Source of the DNA: a virus
Lineage: Duplodnaviria; Heunggongvirae; Uroviricota; Caudoviricetes
Direction: 5' to 3' (one strand)
Length of the DNA: 4,321 nucleotides
Virus record (IMG/VR): IMGVR_UViG_2778261593_000010
Location: 1-4,321 of that record
The notes under the pieces are model-generated. The model was not told the DNA's origin. It worked only from the letters and a program-made list of their open reading frames with translations, and made no database searches. Shown piece by piece: positions 1 to 4,321 of this stretch. Within the stretch, counting starts at the first letter, position 1. Every line of letters begins with the position of its first letter. The translations under genes and the position numbers were made by a program.

Positions 1-402
1 ATCGCCCCGTTCACCATTACACCTGAACTTATCGCCGCGGCGAAGGATGCCAAAAAGCGGGAAATTGAGGCATGGCGTACAGAACAGGAAGCGCAGCCGT
101 TCACGTTCAAATGGAACGGTCGTACCTGGAACGCTGGCCCCGACTCACTGGCTCGCCTTTATCCGGTAGTAATGGCGGCGAAATCCGATACGGCACGGAA
201 CGAGATGACGTGGGGTGACGCTGATAATCAACAGGTGAAACTGTCGATGCCGGAACTGGAAGAACTGGCGGCAGCAATGGCGCAGGCGCAGGTCGATCGC
301 AATGACGAGATTTATCGCCGTCAGCGACAGATGAAGGACGTGCTGGATAGCCTTAATAATCTTGCCGACATCCGCGCTTTTCAGGCTGGAGAGTCAGAAT
401 GA
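1..402 (+). CDS. 3' portion of a phage tail-fibre-assembly / tail-chaperone-like protein (DUF4376-like C-terminal region); 5' end lies outside the window
   Basis: Frame 1 is open from base 1 to the TGA at 400-402 (134 codons with no stop); the ORF track's start at 172 is only the first in-frame ATG. Codon usage is typical of enterobacteria. The W/G/D-containing stretch (FTFKWNGRTWNAG ... MTWGDADNQQVKLSMPELEELAAAMAQ) resembles, from memory, phage tail fibre assembly / DUF4376 proteins. The stop overlaps the next start (ATGA at 399-402). Confidence 0.75.
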   Translation: MAPFTITPELIAAAKDAKKREIEAWRTEQEAQPFTFKWNGRTWNAGPDSLARLYPVVMAAKSDTARNEMTWGDADNQQVKLSMPELEELAAAMAQAQVDRNDEIYRRQRQMKDVLDSLNNLADIRAFQAGESE

Positions 403-1112
403 AATGGGAAAAGGCAATTCTGCGCCCGTCAGCCATGAACATTAAATGCTCTGTGGTTTGCCTGCATCCATGGTCAGAAAATACCGGAAACATCAAACCA
501 TCGGGGCGTTATCTCAGCCCCGAAAATGCTGTATCTGCACTTTTACCCTATCTGAAAGAAAACACAGAAAAGGACATTGTGGCGCTGTTATTTTGCGCTC
601 CTTCTGCTGGCGAGTTTTTATCACTCGCCAGGCAATTTTCAGGCGCATTTCCGTTGCCGGAGGTGGGACGAATGTCCCGCATGATCTCCAGCCAGCTTTC
701 ACTGGCCATCAGCAGAATGCAAATCCCCGCCAGACCGGCAACATCACTTCCGGAACCGATAATGCTGTCGACACAGACCACTCGCAGCATGTCGCTGGCG
801 GCAACCATTGCACAGGCAGCCACTCCTGCCGCCACATCACCGGAAACATTGTCATCATCACTGCATCAGTTCATGAATGCGAGAGATAAAGCTCTACAGG
901 AAATCGCTGATCAGCAGGCCGCACTCCGGCAAAAATTTTGCCCGGTGTGGCGCTTTTGCTACAAGGGAGCCCTCAGCCAGGCCGCAGTGCTGATACAAAA
1001 AAACATCCCACACCCTGAGTGGGTTTTTACAGCTGTGATGCTGTTCGTCGGCGATGATCTCTCATCACTAAGGGAAGCACTACATGACCCAGATGATTGT
1101 CCTTGCGCTTGA
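399..1112 (+). CDS. Hypothetical protein, 237 aa, with an Ala/Ser/Thr/Pro-rich low-complexity centre and a predicted helical Ala/Gln-rich C-terminal part; function unknown (a short tape-measure-like or linker protein is speculation only)
   Basis: A 714-nt ORF; start ATG 399 overlaps the upstream stop (ATGA) with GGAGAG at 388-393 as a ribosome-binding site; its 3' end overlaps the next gene by 29 nt. Against it: several rare codons (AGA, AGG, ATA, CGA), 7 Cys, and a minus-strand ORF (548-835) sharing wobble positions with better-looking codon usage. Confidence 0.55.
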   Translation: MKWEKAILRPSAMNIKCSVVCLHPWSENTGNIKPSGRYLSPENAVSALLPYLKENTEKDIVALLFCAPSAGEFLSLARQFSGAFPLPEVGRMSRMISSQLSLAISRMQIPARPATSLPEPIMLSTQTTRSMSLAATIAQAATPAATSPETLSSSLHQFMNARDKALQEIADQQAALRQKFCPVWRFCYKGALSQAAVLIQKNIPHPEWVFTAVMLFVGDDLSSLREALHDPDDCPCA

Positions 1113-1659
1113 CGGGGAAGCCATTCTGCTGCGCAACATCACCGTCAGCGCCACCATGCAACTACCGGACAAAGATATGTCCGGACAGTCAACCAGCACC
1201 ACGAGCGCCCAGCAGGGAAGCAAGGCTAAAGAGCTGCGCGTGTCGGGGGTTATTGATTTTAACGATGAAGCTATTCTGACCCGTATTTTTCAGCTTGCGG
1301 AGGCAACAGAAAGCAATGGCGCGAAAAAAACATATCGCATTGCTAACGCTACCGCGAAGGCAATCAATATGCGACAGGGGGTATTTTCTGGTGGCATTGA
1401 TGCCACGGAACAACAGGGAAAAATGCACTGGCAGGTCACCTTTACTCTCAGGGAAAAATTAAGCGTGCCAGAGAAAGCGTCTGCACGTAGCGGTTCGCAG
1501 AAAACCATCGCCAGACAGCAGACCCAGAACGGTAGCGAACAGGCACCAGACAAAGGCATGAATACGCAAAGTTCGTTCTGGAAAAAAATCAATGATGCCG
1601 TTGGCTCTGGTCTGGATGCTGTTGGCATCGGGAGCGTGAAAGAGGAAGGGAAAACATGA
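1084..1659 (+). CDS. Hypothetical protein, 191 aa; possibly a gpU-like tail tube-initiator/tail protein (low-confidence recollection), with a Gln/Ser-rich C-terminal tail
   Basis: Clean ORF with typical codon usage; GGGA upstream of ATG 1084; stop overlaps the next start (ATGA at 1656-1659). The segments LRVSGVIDF, ILTRIFQLAEATESNG and HWQVTFTLREKL resemble, from memory, P2 gpU-family proteins; not verified. Confidence 0.8.
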   Translation: MTQMIVLALDGEAILLRNITVSATMQLPDKDMSGQSTSTTSAQQGSKAKELRVSGVIDFNDEAILTRIFQLAEATESNGAKKTYRIANATAKAINMRQGVFSGGIDATEQQGKMHWQVTFTLREKLSVPEKASARSGSQKTIARQQTQNGSEQAPDKGMNTQSSFWKKINDAVGSGLDAVGIGSVKEEGKT

Positions 1660-3353
1660 AATTGATACAACGCTGCATGATTAATGGCGAACGGGTGGAA
1701 ATTGCCGATATAAGCCTTGTTCTTACCCTGAATGCTGCCGGTCGTGGCTTCATTTCTGTTAACAATCTGTCACCCGAACACAGCCTTGCCGGCGCAATGG
1801 TACAAATTGATCTCGGCCGTGACGGTGAAGCATGGCGCTATTTCTCCGGCTACATTGAGCGCGATCAACCTGCTGAAAATGGCTCACGTCGCCTTTTTAT
1901 TCGTGAAGCGGCTGCTGTGCTGGATTTTGATTTCCCTTGCTCCATGCAACACCCGACGTTGCGGAGGGTACTCGATAATCTGGGGCGACAAAGCGGTATC
2001 GTTTTTATCACTCCGGATGCGGATTATGCCAGTATACCAACTCCCTACATCACCCACAGCGGCAGCGGAGCACAACTGCTCAGCCAACTGGGGCGAGCAT
2101 TCAGTATCAGCGATTACGTCTGGCACCCTATGCCGGACGGTTCTGTATTTGTGGGAAGCGCAGCTGATTCACGATTTGCCAGTATTACAATGCCGGATAT
2201 TCCGCAACAGTACACACTCGGGCAAGGCGGCGGAAACAGCATCGACATCATGTTCATGGAAACTGTGCGACCGGGCGTGAATCTTCCCGCCGGGCGTATT
2301 ACCCGCGTAGCCCTCAACAACGAGAAAATGACTCTGACGTGGGAGCGCCTTACCGTCACGGGCAGCCCTGTCTCCAAATCACCATTACGCAGACAGATGG
2401 AAACACAGTTCCCGGAACTGGCCAGCGGCACACTACACACCAGGCTGGCGCGCGTCATTGCACCAACGGAATCCGCCACCCTGGGCGATGTGGCCGACAG
2501 CTTCCGTCCACGCTACGCCGTGGACGTGCAACTGCTCGATGAGGACGGCAACGATAAAAGCGATACGCCTGTTTACCCGGCAGTCCCACTCCCCGTCCCG
2601 ATGGCTGGTAGCGAGGCGGGATGTTTTGCCTACCCGCCGGCAGGCACCATCGTGGAAATATCTAACATTGAAGGGCGCCCGGATAAACCTGTTATCAGGC
2701 AAATCTTACCCGCTGGCCGTAACCTGCCTGATGTAAAGCCCGGCGAACAACTGCAGCAACAGCGCGCAGAAGTGTTTCAGCGCGTCACGACTGACGGAAG
2801 CTGGCACAGAGAAACAGACCAGCAAATCAGGGAGCAGTCAGCCACCCGCACAATTAACAGTGATGCAGAAGAGCGCACCACAACAACCAGAACAACCACA
2901 GTACGGGCAAACGACATAACCAGTGTTCTGGGAACCAGCAAGCTGGCGGCAGGACAAATAGAGCACCTTACTACCGGCCATTACGCGATCGCAGCCAGCG
3001 AGCATATCCAGATGGTAGCGCAGGATTTGCTGACTAAACTCAAAGGGGCAATATCCACAATTGAGCAGGACCTGACTGAAAACGTGGGAGGCCGCAGAAC
3101 ATGCCGGGCGGACGGCGGTCTGAAGTTTACAGCCCCGACAGTATTTATTGGTCGCGGTGGCTCACGGGAAAAATCCGAACTTAATCTGCTGACGTTGTTG
3201 ATTGATATTCTGGATCTGATTCAATTGCTGGCCACGCACACTGCAAACCATACCCACAGCAACACTGGCGCACCAATGAACAGCGGCGAACTTGCCGCAG
3301 ATGCCCTGCAGGCTACGAGCCTGCGCGAAAAATACGGGGACCTTATCGCCTGA
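1656..3353 (+). CDS. Large hypothetical protein, 565 aa; candidate fused phage baseplate hub/spike-like protein (gpD/gp27/VgrG-like N-terminal region, Thr-rich linker, C-terminal HxH tip motif)
   Basis: A 1698-nt ORF with a strong ribosome-binding site (GAGGAAGGG, 1641-1649) and start coupled to the upstream stop. N-terminal segments (LVLTLNAAGRGF, RYFSGYIERD, RRLFIREAAAVLDF, TLRRVLDNLGRQSGI) resemble the Phage_GPD/VgrG N-domain from memory. The C-terminus has HTANHTHSNTGAP, reminiscent of the HxH apex motif of gpV/gp5-type spikes. No Walker A or obvious nuclease motifs. Confidence 0.85.
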   Translation: MKLIQRCMINGERVEIADISLVLTLNAAGRGFISVNNLSPEHSLAGAMVQIDLGRDGEAWRYFSGYIERDQPAENGSRRLFIREAAAVLDFDFPCSMQHPTLRRVLDNLGRQSGIVFITPDADYASIPTPYITHSGSGAQLLSQLGRAFSISDYVWHPMPDGSVFVGSAADSRFASITMPDIPQQYTLGQGGGNSIDIMFMETVRPGVNLPAGRITRVALNNEKMTLTWERLTVTGSPVSKSPLRRQMETQFPELASGTLHTRLARVIAPTESATLGDVADSFRPRYAVDVQLLDEDGNDKSDTPVYPAVPLPVPMAGSEAGCFAYPPAGTIVEISNIEGRPDKPVIRQILPAGRNLPDVKPGEQLQQQRAEVFQRVTTDGSWHRETDQQIREQSATRTINSDAEERTTTTRTTTVRANDITSVLGTSKLAAGQIEHLTTGHYAIAASEHIQMVAQDLLTKLKGAISTIEQDLTENVGGRRTCRADGGLKFTAPTVFIGRGGSREKSELNLLTLLIDILDLIQLLATHTANHTHSNTGAPMNSGELAADALQATSLREKYGDLIA

Positions 3354-3392
3354 TCACCTGGACATAAAAGCCACATAAACGCCCATCACACA

Positions 3393-3417
3393 ACGCACGG
3401 CTTCGGCCGTGCGTTTT
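3393..3417 (+). terminator. Rho-independent terminator of the plus-strand operon
   Basis: Perfect 9-bp stem ACGCACGGC / GCCGTGCGT (3393-3401 and 3406-3414) with a TTCG tetraloop, followed by a T-run (3414-3417); 40 nt downstream of the stop of the 565-aa gene. Confidence 0.8.
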
Positions 3418-3475
3418 CATATCTGCCACCTGATTAATGCGTTCTGCGCGCCATTCTGGCGCTGTATGCGCACAC

Positions 3476-3514
3476 CGCGTAAACGGTGTGACGTAAAGCG
3501 TGAGGTGACGTAAA
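3476..3514. repeat. Short direct repeats: CGTAAA three times (3478, 3492, 3509), two of them as the 10-mer GTGACGTAAA (3488-3497, 3505-3514)
   Basis: Seen directly in the sequence; spacing 14 and 17 bp; lies in the ORF-free region between the two terminators. Candidate protein-binding iterons or a recombination-site remnant. Confidence 0.4.
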
Positions 3515-3895
3515 CCGCGCTACCCCCTCCAACCCGCGGGTTTTGTGTCGAAACACTTTTTCAGTTTTCTGCCATGCAAAAATGACCGCCAGCCCGCGCA
3601 GCAACTGAGGGAAAAGCGAAGATCTGAAATTTCACGCTTTGAAATTTTTTGCAGTTTTCAGAGGGATTTTTACGATCTCATGAATGGCAGGAGAAAGAAA
3701 ACAGGCTGATATTAAAAGAGTTTTCATACTTTACGTGGGACAAGACGCGATCGCGAAAGGATCGCATCAAAAAATCTTCAAACAACGAAGCCAGACGCGG
3801 CGCGGCCTGCGTAAGATTGAGAGTCAAAATTAAACTGAAAAAAGGATCAATACCGCGCCTCGATCGCACATGACGATCTACGCAGCAACAGGACG

Positions 3896-3917
3896 AAAAA
3901 ACCGGCGCGAACGCCGG
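3896..3917 (-). terminator. Rho-independent terminator on the minus strand
   Basis: On the minus strand: CCGGCG-UUCG-CGCCGG (6-bp all-GC stem, UUCG tetraloop; plus coordinates 3902-3917) followed by six U (plus A-run 3896-3901). On the plus strand the A-run precedes the hairpin, so it terminates only leftward transcription. Confidence 0.7.
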
Positions 3918-3960
3918 CGGAAGCATGTATCAAATGCGTGATTGAATAATGTCTGCGGTC
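3896..3960 (-). ncRNA. Candidate ~65-nt small RNA transcribed leftward, divergent from the hok-like gene
   Basis: Bounded by a predicted minus-strand promoter (-35 TTGAGG, -10 TATAAA) and a minus-strand intrinsic terminator (3896-3917). The interval holds no credible ORF (only a 6-codon ATG frame). Length is similar to Sok-type antitoxin RNAs, but it does not overlap the predicted hok leader. Confidence 0.35.
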
Positions 3961-3966
3961 GGGAAT

Positions 3967-3994
3967 TTTATATCAGAAGGCTGACGGGCCTCAA
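3967..3994 (-). promoter_or_regulatory. Putative sigma70-type promoter for the leftward small RNA
   Basis: Minus strand: -35 TTGAGG (plus 3989-3994), 16-bp spacer, -10 TATAAA (plus 3967-3972). By-eye match only. Confidence 0.35.
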
Positions 3995-3998
3995 CGGA

Positions 3999-4028
3999 TT
4001 GATACAAGGGAAAAAACCAGGCTAGAAT
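3999..4028 (+). promoter_or_regulatory. Putative sigma70-type promoter for the hok-like transcript
   Basis: -35 TTGATA (3999-4004), 18-bp spacer, -10 TAGAAT (4023-4028); predicted start near 4036, giving a ~145-nt leader. Its -35 lies 4 bp from the -35 of the divergent minus-strand promoter. Confidence 0.4.
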
Positions 4029-4078
4029 TCGCGCGGGTGCCTTTCGGCTGATGGCTGGAGGGAATACCTGAAGGCCGG

Positions 4079-4153
4079 ATGTGGAAAGGCCCCGGAAAAC
4101 ACTTTTGTTTAACCGAGGCCCTAACCGTCTACCCTAAGCAAGTGATAGGTTAG
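4079..4153 (+). CDS. Possible 24-codon leader ORF in the hok-like mRNA leader (MWKGPGKHFCLTEALTVYPKQVIG)
   Basis: ATG at 4079 preceded by GAAGG (4070-4074); TAG at 4151-4153; same frame as hok-like gene and ends 27 nt before its ATG. It may be fortuitous. Confidence 0.25.
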   Translation: MWKGPGKHFCLTEALTVYPKQVIG

Positions 4154-4180
4154 CGCCTCCCTGAAAAAGGAGCAAGCGCT

Positions 4181-4321
4181 ATGTCGCAAAAATCGCTTAC
4201 GGCCATCACGTTCTGCGTGACGGCAATCCTCATCATCTGGATGCTGCACGGTTCGCTGTGCGAAATACGGATGAGCTTCTGGGGAGCGGAGTTTGCGGCG
4301 TTCTTACAGTGTAAGCAGTAA
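4181..4321 (+). CDS. hok: Hok/Gef-family type I toxin (small membrane-depolarising peptide), 46 aa, closest by memory to HokA-type paralogs
   Basis: Not in the ORF track (below its size cut-off). ATG 4181 has a ribosome-binding site AAGGAG (4167-4172, 8-nt spacing); TAA at 4319-4321. Product MSQKSLTAITFCVTAILIIWMLHGSLCEIRMSFWGAEFAAFLQCKQ has an N-terminal transmembrane helix followed by the family-defining SLCEIR motif and an E-x-AAF C-terminal segment (compare Hok of plasmid R1: ...[23 protein letters not shown]...). Confidence 0.85.
   Translation: MSQKSLTAITFCVTAILIIWMLHGSLCEIRMSFWGAEFAAFLQCKQ

Follow-up and report, generated by a model that had tools for sequence, protein, structure and literature searches.

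A hokW/sokW-type cassette with a predicted Sok in its leader, next to a separate leftward terminator unit, at the right end of an HP1/P2-like prophage

The hok/mok/sok (parB) locus of plasmid R1, the subject of work by the Gerdes laboratory, reportedly combines a stable hok mRNA closed by pairing of its 5' and 3' ends, a cis-antisense Sok RNA of ~60-70 nt made from a promoter in the leader, and a toxin of the Hok/Gef family. In the divergent type I systems IstR-1/tisB, OhsC/shoB and OrzO/zorO the antitoxin RNA gene lies head-to-head with the toxin promoter, and RalA/ralR is trans-encoded. Closest to the locus described here are the hokW/sokW loci of Sp5 (VT2-Sakai), 933W and P88. Experiments have established that the homologous sokW is expressed and acts as the antitoxin, having 71 nt of complementarity to the hokW 5' UTR, and the cloned hokW-sokW cassette of Sp5 was shown to be sufficient (PMC8621323).

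We have analyzed a stretch of 4,321 nt of viral DNA (Caudoviricetes; IMG/VR record IMGVR_UViG_2778261593_000010, positions 1 to 4,321), from here on the window, which to judge from its sequence corresponds to the right end of a prophage of the HP1/P2 type. The last baseplate genes are followed by an 830-bp non-coding spacer and then by a hok moron, and the window stops at the hok stop codon, with the hok 3' UTR outside it. A previous sequence-only reading had described here a non-canonical arrangement, in which the antitoxin would not be cis-antisense and a divergent small RNA would be the only well-defined small transcription unit. Our analysis contradicts both statements, because the locus carries the full set of hokW/sokW hallmarks, including a Sok with promoter and terminator inside the hok leader. 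With the hokW/sokW loci of Sp5, 933W and P88 the locus shares the promoter, the GGGUGCC 5' end, the leader, the -10 and terminator hairpin of Sok, the Hok peptide and, past the stop codon in close relatives, the fbi-like element. Unlike them, the window copy follows HP1/P2-like baseplate genes behind the non-coding spacer and carries an extra leftward unit (3895-3994). The regulatory logic is also that of R1 hok/mok/sok, although the sequence is only distantly related and no mok frame was found.

A consensus scan of 3340-4321 gave exactly two promoter-like sites, back-to-back, one on the plus strand at 3999-4028 and one on the minus strand at 3994-3965, with their -35 elements 4 bp apart. The divergent promoter pair proposed earlier is therefore present at the sequence level. 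The plus-strand site, TTGATA(3999)-18-TAGAAT(4028), matches the consensus at 10/12 positions and is the predicted hok promoter. It is followed by the hok 5' untranslated leader (4035..4180, plus strand), which starts with GGGUGCC, a tac-like 5' end. Rfam RF01794 matched the plus strand at 4035-4194 over its full length (model positions 1-157; E=2e-7) with 42.6 bits, below the gathering score of 59, indicating a long structured leader homologous to those of known hok mRNAs. At the DNA level the identity to the hokW cassettes of P88, 933W and VT2-Sakai was 82-96% from ~4007 to 4321, the Sp5 hokW-sokW being ~82% identical over that range. The hok CDS (4181..4321, plus strand) codes for 46 amino acids of the Hok/Gef family, with 29.9 bits against Pfam PF01848 (cut-off 22) and E=1e-22 against PHROG 251 'MokW-like host killing', and RefSeq relatives annotate the product as Hok/Gef family protein. 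No intact overlapping mok ORF was present, as all three frames from 4035 hit stops before or within hok; a survey of Hok systems mentions that mok is hard to call (preprint, 10.1101/2025.08.07.668861).

The 3' UTRs of the closest relatives allowed the two ends of the mRNA to be compared. In seven loci (L001, L005, L024, L021, L022, L023 and L076) the 5' GGGUGCC pairs with a GGCACCC located 55-65 nt past the hok stop, with long-range pairing energies of -29 to -32 kcal/mol; the pairing is that of GGGUGCC(UUUCGGC) with (GAAG)UGGCACCC. The ECL27977-type alleles do not show this tac/fbi pairing. The hok 5' end can be placed at ~4035 because the position of the promoter, the Rfam leader model and the 5'-3' pairing coincide there. 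This bears directly on an option contemplated before, namely that the hok transcript starts upstream of 3896 and the leftward unit is a displaced cis-antisense Sok. Formally the idea can be entertained, and the terminator scan found no plus-strand terminator between 3420 and 4035. Against it, the sole plus-strand promoter-like site is that at 3999-4028, the leader model starts at 4035, and the first 7 nt of the mRNA pair with the fbi-like element in the seven relatives, as happens in R1 hok mRNA. Besides, the promoters of the P88, 933W and pVP444 hok loci align at the homologous position, whereas their upstream sequences are all different. We consider a displaced Sok extremely improbable.

Within the leader, the minus strand carries a candidate Sok gene (4083..4175) with a -35 TTGCTC (4175-4170), a 17-nt spacer and a -10 TAACCT (4152-4147). 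The predicted RNA runs from ~4140 to 4083, and its terminator hairpin (~4122-4086) is followed by UUUCC. The fold has -27.8 kcal/mol and a z-score of -3.48, a value equalled by 0/200 shuffles, and the hairpin persists in 7 diverged hok loci, where 2 compensatory pairs were seen together with a U-G pair possible on the minus strand only. The Sok -10 was TAACCT or TAAGCT in all the variants, and the match of the promoter to the sigma-70 consensus was only 3/6 + 3/6. These features point to a classical control of hok by an overlapping antisense Sok, as in any ordinary cassette of the hokW/sokW type.

The leftward unit lies between this cassette and a conserved GATC-rich non-coding region that separates it from the late (baseplate) operon. 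Its putative sigma-70-like promoter (minus strand, 3994-3965; 9/12) consists of a -35 TTGAGG (3994-3989), an 18-nt spacer and a -10 TAAAAT (3970-3965). The earlier proposal for this promoter, TTGAGG-16-TATAAA, holds partially. The site exists, and TG-n-TATAAA with a 16-nt spacer is an overlapping alternative reading, but 6 of 14 variants have TGTAAA in place of TATAAA, so that TAAAAT is the more likely -10. Among the window-type variants the -35 was kept as TTGAG[GA] (TTGGGG in L114) and the -10 as TA[AG]AAT. The -10 is missing from the ECL27977-type alleles (TGCATATC), in which the RNA body and the terminator are still kept. A transcript from this site would begin at ~3960-3958 and end at 3896, that is 63-65 nt, in agreement with the ~65 nt estimated before. 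Its body (3919..3960, minus strand; GACCGCAGACAUUAUUCAAUCACGCAUUUGAUACAUGCUUCC) has about 40 nt and is weakly structured, the z-score for the fold of the whole RNA being only -1.68. The hok ATG is 285 nt from the 3' end of this RNA and 221 nt from its predicted start, and not the ~265 nt given previously. Two minus-strand ORFs in the area were discarded, one of 25 aa (4007-3930) with a TTG start and no RBS and another of 82 aa (3926-3678) that reads through the leftward terminator.

The intrinsic terminator itself (3895..3918, minus strand) was confirmed by terminator scan and folding, as a stem-loop at 3918-3901 (GCCGGCG-UUCG-CGCCGGU) of 7 pairs, 6 of them G-C, with a UUCG loop, -12.9 kcal/mol and a U6 in the run that extends to ~3896. 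It has the GC-rich stem, the short loop and the immediate 3' U-tract expected of intrinsic terminators, and the same two methods gave no further canonical terminator on the minus strand from the Sok promoter down to 3918. In dinucleotide shuffles of 3354-4321, a promoter-like site located 25-150 nt upstream of an equally strong terminator appeared in 0.5% of the cases, or in 6% under a loose terminator rule. Taking the terminator as given, a promoter-like site within 140 nt upstream was found in 7% of the shuffles. It follows from these rates that the significance of the unit is carried by the terminator, the promoter being only weakly beyond chance. GC-rich 7-bp stem, UUCG tetraloop, U6-8 tail, position at the edge of a moron and conserved hairpin are all shared with the ordinary terminators that bound morons or insulate operons. 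Unlike those, the one in the window faces away from the moron gene and has a promoter-like site ~45 nt upstream. Given this orientation it could stop only antisense or divergent transcription.

The placement of the unit beside the toxin promoter, with a head-to-head small RNA gene, recalls the divergent type I antitoxins, and a trans-acting antitoxin of the istR/tisB kind, with limited base-pairing to hok, had been suggested. There is no overlap between the two transcripts, as the earlier reading had noticed, with the predicted RNA start (~3960) 75 nt upstream of the hok +1 (4035). The earlier reading was right, too, in seeing no extended complementarity to hok. The longest perfect complement between the leftward RNA and the hok mRNA was 8 nt, equalled by 15% of the shuffles, and between the leftward RNA and Sok 5 nt. 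RNAduplex energies with the hok mRNA were matched by 340/500 and 119/500 shuffles; because long internal loops inflate these energies, the judgement was based on how they compare with shuffles and on the longest stretches of exact complementarity. The pairing is thus at chance level for leader, CDS and 3' UTR, contrary to what is seen in trans-acting type I antitoxins, and a complete cis-antisense Sok is already present. The RNA body is not conserved (see below). Moreover, the homologous Sp5 cassette is sufficient without any such unit (PMC8621323), in agreement with the absence of the unit from nearly all hok loci and its failure to co-occur with hok. By these comparisons the leftward unit is not the hok antitoxin, and an istR-like role is very improbable.

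We examined how far the unit and the cassette travel together. A 962-nt query (3360-4321, spacer plus hok) matched 1,687 of 5,426 complete E. coli genomes, largely owing to the hok part, and the segment 3880-4040 was found in 45 of the 5,426 (~0.8%) and also in E. albertii. Among the strains with the unit are K_EC180 (NZ_CP062203, 1,247,476-1,247,636), ETEC1730 and STEC316. Some 1,650 E. coli genomes carry the hok cassette without the leftward unit. Similarly, in 74 of 80 sampled viral contigs with an identical Hok, an ogr gene abuts the hok promoter and the unit is missing. Neither the E. coli genomes nor the 80 viral contigs showed co-inheritance of the unit with hok. The region 3420-4010 had no BLAST match among plasmids and a single weak and unrelated one among deposited phages (window ~3512-3592, E=4e-3). 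A metagenome scan with the pattern of the RNA body retrieved five close relatives and one chance match (L033), and a scan of genome contigs with the 565-aa baseplate protein gave 3 loci, one from E. albertii and two from Edwardsiella, too few for covariation. Leftward terminators as a general companion of hok promoters were considered and rejected, being absent from the dominant P88-like context. As a weak lead, faint leftward terminators upstream of hok were seen in L076-type loci and pVP444 only. Judging by this distribution, the leftward unit is a separate element outside the cassette, limited to a single prophage lineage of E. coli and E. albertii.

The boundaries found in these comparisons are of interest for another explanation, that the segment is a functionless relic, the leftover terminator of a lost moron or gene at a recombination or insertion hotspot, with fortuitous promoter hexamers. 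The left edge of the homology of the cassette to P88, 933W and other hok loci falls at ~3988-4007, and an allele-replacement breakpoint was located at ~3956, so that the segment coincides exactly with a junction. In the Edwardsiella relatives ~3880-3995 is missing, although the non-coding DNA upstream, a hok-type promoter and the leader are all there; Edwardsiella anguillarum has no segment at this place, and E. ictaluri has an unrelated insert of ~95 nt, flanked by a GCGCAGAA repeat. The modest improbability of a promoter-like site upstream of a given terminator fits this idea as well. What speaks against a relic is the behaviour of the hairpin. In an unbiased set of 14 variants, retrieved via a pattern in the hok promoter, variable sites were 0/18 in the hairpin and 37/118 in the left flank (p=0.003), a figure that derives from closely related, non-independent sequences. 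The rare changes detected elsewhere, in L029 (G-C to G-U and G-U to A-U), preserve pairing on the minus strand only, and the T-run was 5-8 nt long in all relatives. Within this small sample of closely related sequences, the structure of the terminator appears to have been maintained on the transcribed strand; a conserved protein-bound DNA palindrome would give an identical pattern of low variability. Overall we regard a functionless relic as unlikely.

The RNA body behaved differently from the hairpin. Its apparent invariance in loci retrieved by an 18-nt pattern of the body itself was an ascertainment bias that disappeared in the unbiased set; only the hairpin conservation remained once the loci were collected again through the hok-promoter pattern. 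In the 14 variants 7/31 sites of the body were variable versus 37/118 of the flank (p=0.38), which is drift at the neutral-flank rate. The L115 variant has 7 substitutions over 3919-3955, with two within the 5' end (3950-3964) and two that break predicted pairs, and the weak 5' hairpin is not maintained among variants. No conserved single-stranded seed could be recognized in these alignments of the leftward RNA.

These data have to be weighed against the possibility that the unit is an independently expressed trans-acting prophage sRNA of ~65 nt, Hfq-type, with a target in the host core or elsewhere and unrelated to hok. U6-U8 tails and an A/U-rich body are typical of Hfq-binding sRNAs, and the unit has the predicted makeup of one, with its own 9/12 promoter-like site, a good -10 TAAAAT, a strong Rho-independent terminator at the right spacing, an A/U-rich body, a GC hairpin and a long U tail, in a combination that was rare in shuffles (0.5-6%). 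The hexamers were kept in most window-type variants although the spacer varies. It also counts in favour that prophages of pathogenic E. coli commonly encode sRNAs (bioRxiv 10.64898/2026.05.13.724894). On the other side stand the missing seed, a body that varies like its flanks, the unmaintained 5' hairpin, the loss of the -10 in the ECL27977-type alleles and the presence of the unit in only 45 of the 5,426 complete genomes. Besides, Rfam gave nothing credible over the unit (E<=1 for the whole window, E<=10 for 3860-4040), and the best complement to the leftward RNA in the 22-kb prophage of K_EC180 was 10 nt long, the null range being 8-13. None of the 41 full-length E. coli matches has an annotated feature under the unit, and a literature search with its exact sequences returned no papers. 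The Pas sRNAs of lambdoid prophages (1,362 genomes) were discarded as the identity of the leftward RNA, their context and distribution being different. We see an independent sRNA as a minority possibility. Of the options put forward previously, an RNA unrelated to hok is the sole one that survives, though the comparison of variants speaks for conservation of the terminator rather than of the RNA.

We lean slightly, therefore, towards an ordinary hokW/sokW cassette accompanied by a separate leftward terminator or boundary element. The leftward unit is probably a terminator, or insulator, specific to this context and accompanied by a divergent promoter of modest strength, the short RNA being a by-product. 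In such an arrangement the hok mRNA would be transcribed from ~4035, with its 5' end paired to the 3' fbi-like element, and Sok would be made inside the leader. Leftward transcripts, initiated at the divergent promoter-like site or reading through the U-poor terminator of Sok, would be halted within ~65-250 nt, before they could enter the GATC-rich region and the late operon in antisense. The part under selection would be the intrinsic terminator rather than the RNA body, and the ~65-nt RNA, if made, would not be a base-pairing regulator of hok. It must be added that the P88-like majority has no leftward terminator on the upstream side of hok, which means that Sok read-through is tolerated or rare there, weakening the need for an insulator.

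The promoter hexamers were slightly better kept than the spacer in the window-type variants (3/12 versus 9/18 variable sites), a difference that was not significant (p=0.26) and leaves room for a deliberately expressed RNA. The unit could then be a second layer of the hok module, either as a new host-targeting sRNA or as a promoter with an early terminator that tunes hok by polymerase competition or supercoiling; in the latter version the terminator would confine the transcript while the firing of the promoter tunes hok transcription. We find this quite doubtful.

The hok locus of the window is thus one more prophage-moron copy of the known, experimentally validated hokW/sokW type, and should not be classed among the non-canonical type I systems. 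In Rfam, the family named 'sok' recognizes the strand of the hok mRNA, and Sok promoters match the sigma-70 consensus poorly, so that a by-eye reading can overlook the true antitoxin and make too much of a promoter and terminator beside it. As to the leftward unit, it appears to be an unannotated, lineage-restricted terminator with a possible short transcript, and it matters little beyond annotation. Should expression be demonstrated, it would count as a further orphan sRNA of a prophage, or else as a case of a terminator that insulates the boundary of a moron.

The hok locus that closes the window is a canonical, ordinary hok/sok system, with a toxin, leader homology, a cis-antisense Sok and the tac/fbi pairing between the 5' and 3' ends of the full-length mRNA; of the classical features, the mok frame was the one not found. 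The toxin is a Hok/Gef ORF of 46 aa on the plus strand (4181-4321). We scanned 3340-4321 for consensus promoters and located a hok promoter-like site on the plus strand at 3999-4028 (TTGATA-18-TAGAAT). The Rfam family RF01794 (named "sok", 157 positions) gave a full-length plus-strand match at 4035-4194 (E=2e-7), with a score of 42.6 bits that is under the gathering score of 59. This match lies on the hok strand, begins at the predicted +1 and reaches the first codons of hok, so that here the model marks the hok leader. Over ~4007-4321, the hok loci of P88, Chuche and P884B11, all P2-like phages, share 92-96% identity with the window, and hokW of 933W and VT2-Sakai/Sp5, both Stx phages, shares 82-83%. 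The hokW/sokW pair of Sp5 is a type I system by experiment, in which the sokW RNA, made from its own promoter, neutralises HokW and is complementary over 71 nt to the 5' UTR of hokW (PMC8621323). When five contexts were aligned, the promoters were found at the homologous position followed by a common GGGTGCCTTTCGGC start, and the sequence farther upstream was unrelated. Phage annotations name this family "MokW-like", yet 4035-4321 has no intact mok-like frame overlapping hok, with stops upstream of or within hok in all three frames.

The sequence-only reading had considered the arrangement non-canonical, with an antitoxin that is not cis-antisense and an RNA transcribed leftward, away from hok, as the only well-defined small transcription unit. 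Actually, a second minus-strand unit with promoter and terminator lies antisense within the leader. Its promoter has a -35 TTGCTC (4175-4170), a 17-nt spacer and a -10 TAACCT (4152-4147), and a long terminator hairpin followed by UUUCC is found at ~4122-4086. It had been missed, both by the scan and by eye, because the hexamers match the consensus at only 3/6 and 3/6 positions. The UUUCC tail did not pass the U-tract rule of the scan. The fold (-27.8 kcal/mol, z-score -3.48) was equalled by no shuffle, and the hairpin was kept in seven diverged hok loci, with two compensatory pairs and, in addition, one U-G pair that is valid on the minus strand only. Judging from these features, the element is an ordinary Sok, with a predicted length of ~58 nt.

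The window does not include the hok 3' UTR, and the 5'-3' pairing was assessed in seven relatives. There, GGGUGCC(UUUCGGC) at the very start of the mRNA pairs with (GAAG)UGGCACCC (-29 to -32 kcal/mol), located 55-65 nt past the hok stop and immediately ahead of the mRNA terminator. This is the tac/fbi fold-back known for the R1 hok mRNA from the work of the Gerdes laboratory, and the pairing of the first bases fixes the hok mRNA 5' end at ~4035. With this 5' end, it is extremely improbable that hok is transcribed from further upstream and that the leftward RNA is a displaced Sok; the leftward unit was also rejected as Sok for its lack of overlap with the hok mRNA. The window and many IMG/VR contigs (L038, L040 and ~45 other loci) end exactly on the hok stop codon (4321 in the window), which looks like prophage-boundary trimming at the gene end. 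Such trimming costs the record the 3' UTR with its fbi element and terminator, although this UTR belongs to the functional unit. A group of ECL27977-type alleles (L002-L004, L008, L009 and L014) carries a diverged hok promoter-proximal and leader/Sok region that replaces the equivalent of 3956-4180, with the Hok CDS and 3' UTR nearly identical. Their mRNA starts with GGACACC or GGACGCC, so that the complementarity to the 3' GGCACCC element is gone and therefore the fold-back is lost. From the sequence, hok may be mis-regulated or inactive in these alleles.

The window is the right end of a prophage, with late genes to the left of hok. Plus-strand ORFs up to 3353 matched the DUF4376 tail-fibre-associated domain, the HP1 ORF34 baseplate-complex family and the PHROG "baseplate protein". 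Three late genes in tight overlap occupy 399-3353 and code for a 237-aa protein (PHROG 31292/1677, unassigned function), a 191-aa HP1 ORF34 baseplate-complex protein and a 565-aa baseplate protein (PHROG 2258) without Pfam domain. DNA 97% identical to the window is part of the remnant of a P2/HP1-like prophage in E. coli K_EC180, which is flanked by pheL and raiA and carries an integrase, Cox, replication endonuclease, ogr, tail-fibre genes, baseplate genes and hok, then com and a mom-like methyltransferase. The three late genes persist in this remnant, whose capsid and tail-sheath genes are gone. A strong plus-strand hairpin with a T-run follows the last baseplate gene (3393-3418, -18.2 kcal/mol), and 830 bp of non-coding DNA separate it from the hok ORF.

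The leftward unit is located in this non-coding stretch. The features described by eye are present: in 3340-4321 the scan gave two promoter-like sites, back-to-back and 4 bp apart. It also gave a terminator on the minus strand (3918-3901), whose stem of 7 pairs (6 G-C) has a UUCG loop and is followed by a T-run, as expected by definition for an intrinsic terminator. Between the Sok promoter and 3918 no further canonical terminator was detected on the minus strand. The predicted RNA is 63-65 nt long and folds weakly outside the terminator hairpin (whole-RNA z-score -1.68). In dinucleotide shuffles of the region, 0.5% (6% under a loose terminator rule) had a promoter-like site ahead of an equally good terminator and, given the terminator, 7% had a promoter-like site within 140 nt upstream. 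By these rates the terminator is clearly non-random and the promoter marginally so.

The remark that this RNA has no obvious extended complementarity to hok was borne out. The longest perfect complement to the full-length hok mRNA was 8 nt, a length that 15% of shuffles attain; the duplex energy was no better than for shuffled RNAs (340/500 as good), nor was that of the unstructured 5' part (119/500). The true antisense Sok forms a duplex of -135 kcal/mol. The longest complement to the Sok strand was 5 nt, and that across the 22-kb prophage, 10 nt, was within the null range. Nor is the unit co-inherited with hok, and it was discarded as a divergent type I antitoxin; the proposed trans-acting antitoxin of the istR/tisB type has hardly any probability left. 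Context and distribution ruled out a Pas prophage sRNA, and no paper in the library searched carries the sequence.

Homology to other hok loci starts at ~4007 (P88 and 933W) or ~3988 (plasmid hok of pVP444), so the leftward -35 is at the very edge of the cassette, with the -10, body and terminator beyond it. A 962-nt query (3360-4321, spacer plus hok) matched 1,687 complete E. coli genomes out of 5,426, mostly via hok, and the 3880-4040 segment was found in 45 of the 5,426, 41 at full length and with no annotated feature underneath. Among 80 viral contigs encoding an identical Hok, 74 have P2 ogr reaching the hok promoter and no leftward terminator, and only 3 carry the unit. Nothing similar to 3420-4010 was found in plasmids, and deposited phages gave a single weak, unrelated match (~3512-3592, E=4e-3).

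Prophages of Edwardsiella ictaluri (L025) and E. anguillarum have a baseplate gene 60% identical, then ~300 nt of upstream non-coding DNA at 68-70% identity and a hok-type promoter with a leader remnant, to which hok is reduced beside a tRNA cluster. The ~115-nt segment with the leftward unit is missing in E. anguillarum. E. ictaluri has instead an unrelated insert of ~95 nt (L025 ~4700-4880) bounded by the direct repeat GCGCAGAA, at the same spot, with the GATC region on one side and the hok-type promoter on the other. The position appears to be an insertion hotspot. The GATC region, ~370 bp of non-coding DNA (3500-3880) with the late-operon terminator to its left and the leftward unit to its right, has no conserved ORF in its Edwardsiella equivalents (L025 4397-4699, L026 5902-6158; 68-70% identity). 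It contains conserved GATC pairs (palindrome GCGATCGCGAAAGGATCGC at ~3748-3766; sites at 3845, 3861 and 3875) and repeats (GTGACGTAAA and TTTTT(C/G)CAGTTTTC, twice each), and could be a control region that is Dam-sensitive or bound by a regulator. The contig L076 (IMGVR_UViG_2721755643_000003, 255-1055) has a baseplate gene that is a diverged homologue of the 565-aa one; downstream come ~800 bp of unrelated non-coding DNA, likewise with GATC sites, and then the same hok cassette. Weak leftward hairpins are found there (T5, ~95-113 nt upstream of the hok +1) and immediately left of the pVP444 hok promoter (U4), a possible recurring theme that is statistically unconvincing.

With loci fetched by a pattern in the RNA body, this body seemed not to vary, an ascertainment bias, and we re-sampled by a pattern in the hok promoter, obtaining 14 distinct window-type sequences. 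Variable sites were 0/18 in the terminator stem-loop and 37/118 in the left flank (Fisher p=0.003). The RNA body (7/31) did not differ from the flank (p=0.38), nor significantly the two promoter hexamers (3/12) from the spacer (9/18; p=0.26). In a larger set, hairpin variants kept the minus-strand pairing (G-C to G-U and G-U to A-U in the locus L029), and the T-run was 5-8 in every variant. The -35 TTGAGG (3994) of the sequence-only reading stands. Its -10 TATAAA at a 16-nt spacer is TGTAAA in 6/14 variants, and therefore TAAAAT (3965) with an 18-nt spacer is the better choice. The ECL27977-type alleles have an improved -35 (TTGACT) and have lost an acceptable -10 (TGCATATC); the breakpoint is to the right of the body and the terminator, which for this reason are unchanged. 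A genuine orphan trans-acting sRNA seems doubtful. The unit lacks the conserved seed expected of one, and L115, a related locus with terminator and hexamers (TTGAGA/TAAAAT) intact, has 7 substitutions over 3919-3955, two of them breaking the weak predicted 5' hairpin.

We lean slightly towards the selected element being the intrinsic terminator, which would act at the left edge of the hok moron and stop transcription running leftward. This transcription could come from the back-to-back promoter-like site, giving the ~65-nt RNA as a by-product, or from Sok read-through past its UUUCC-tailed terminator, up to 3918. The terminator would protect the 3' end of the late operon and the GATC-rich non-coding region, conserved across genera. 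This boundary role is weakened mainly by the dominant P88-like context, which does without such a terminator. A functionless relic at the insertion hotspot is as doubtful as the trans-acting sRNA, given that the stem-loop had no variable site in the 14 sequences. The locus is thus an ordinary hok/sok system with an unannotated, lineage-restricted neighbouring terminator and a possible short transcript.
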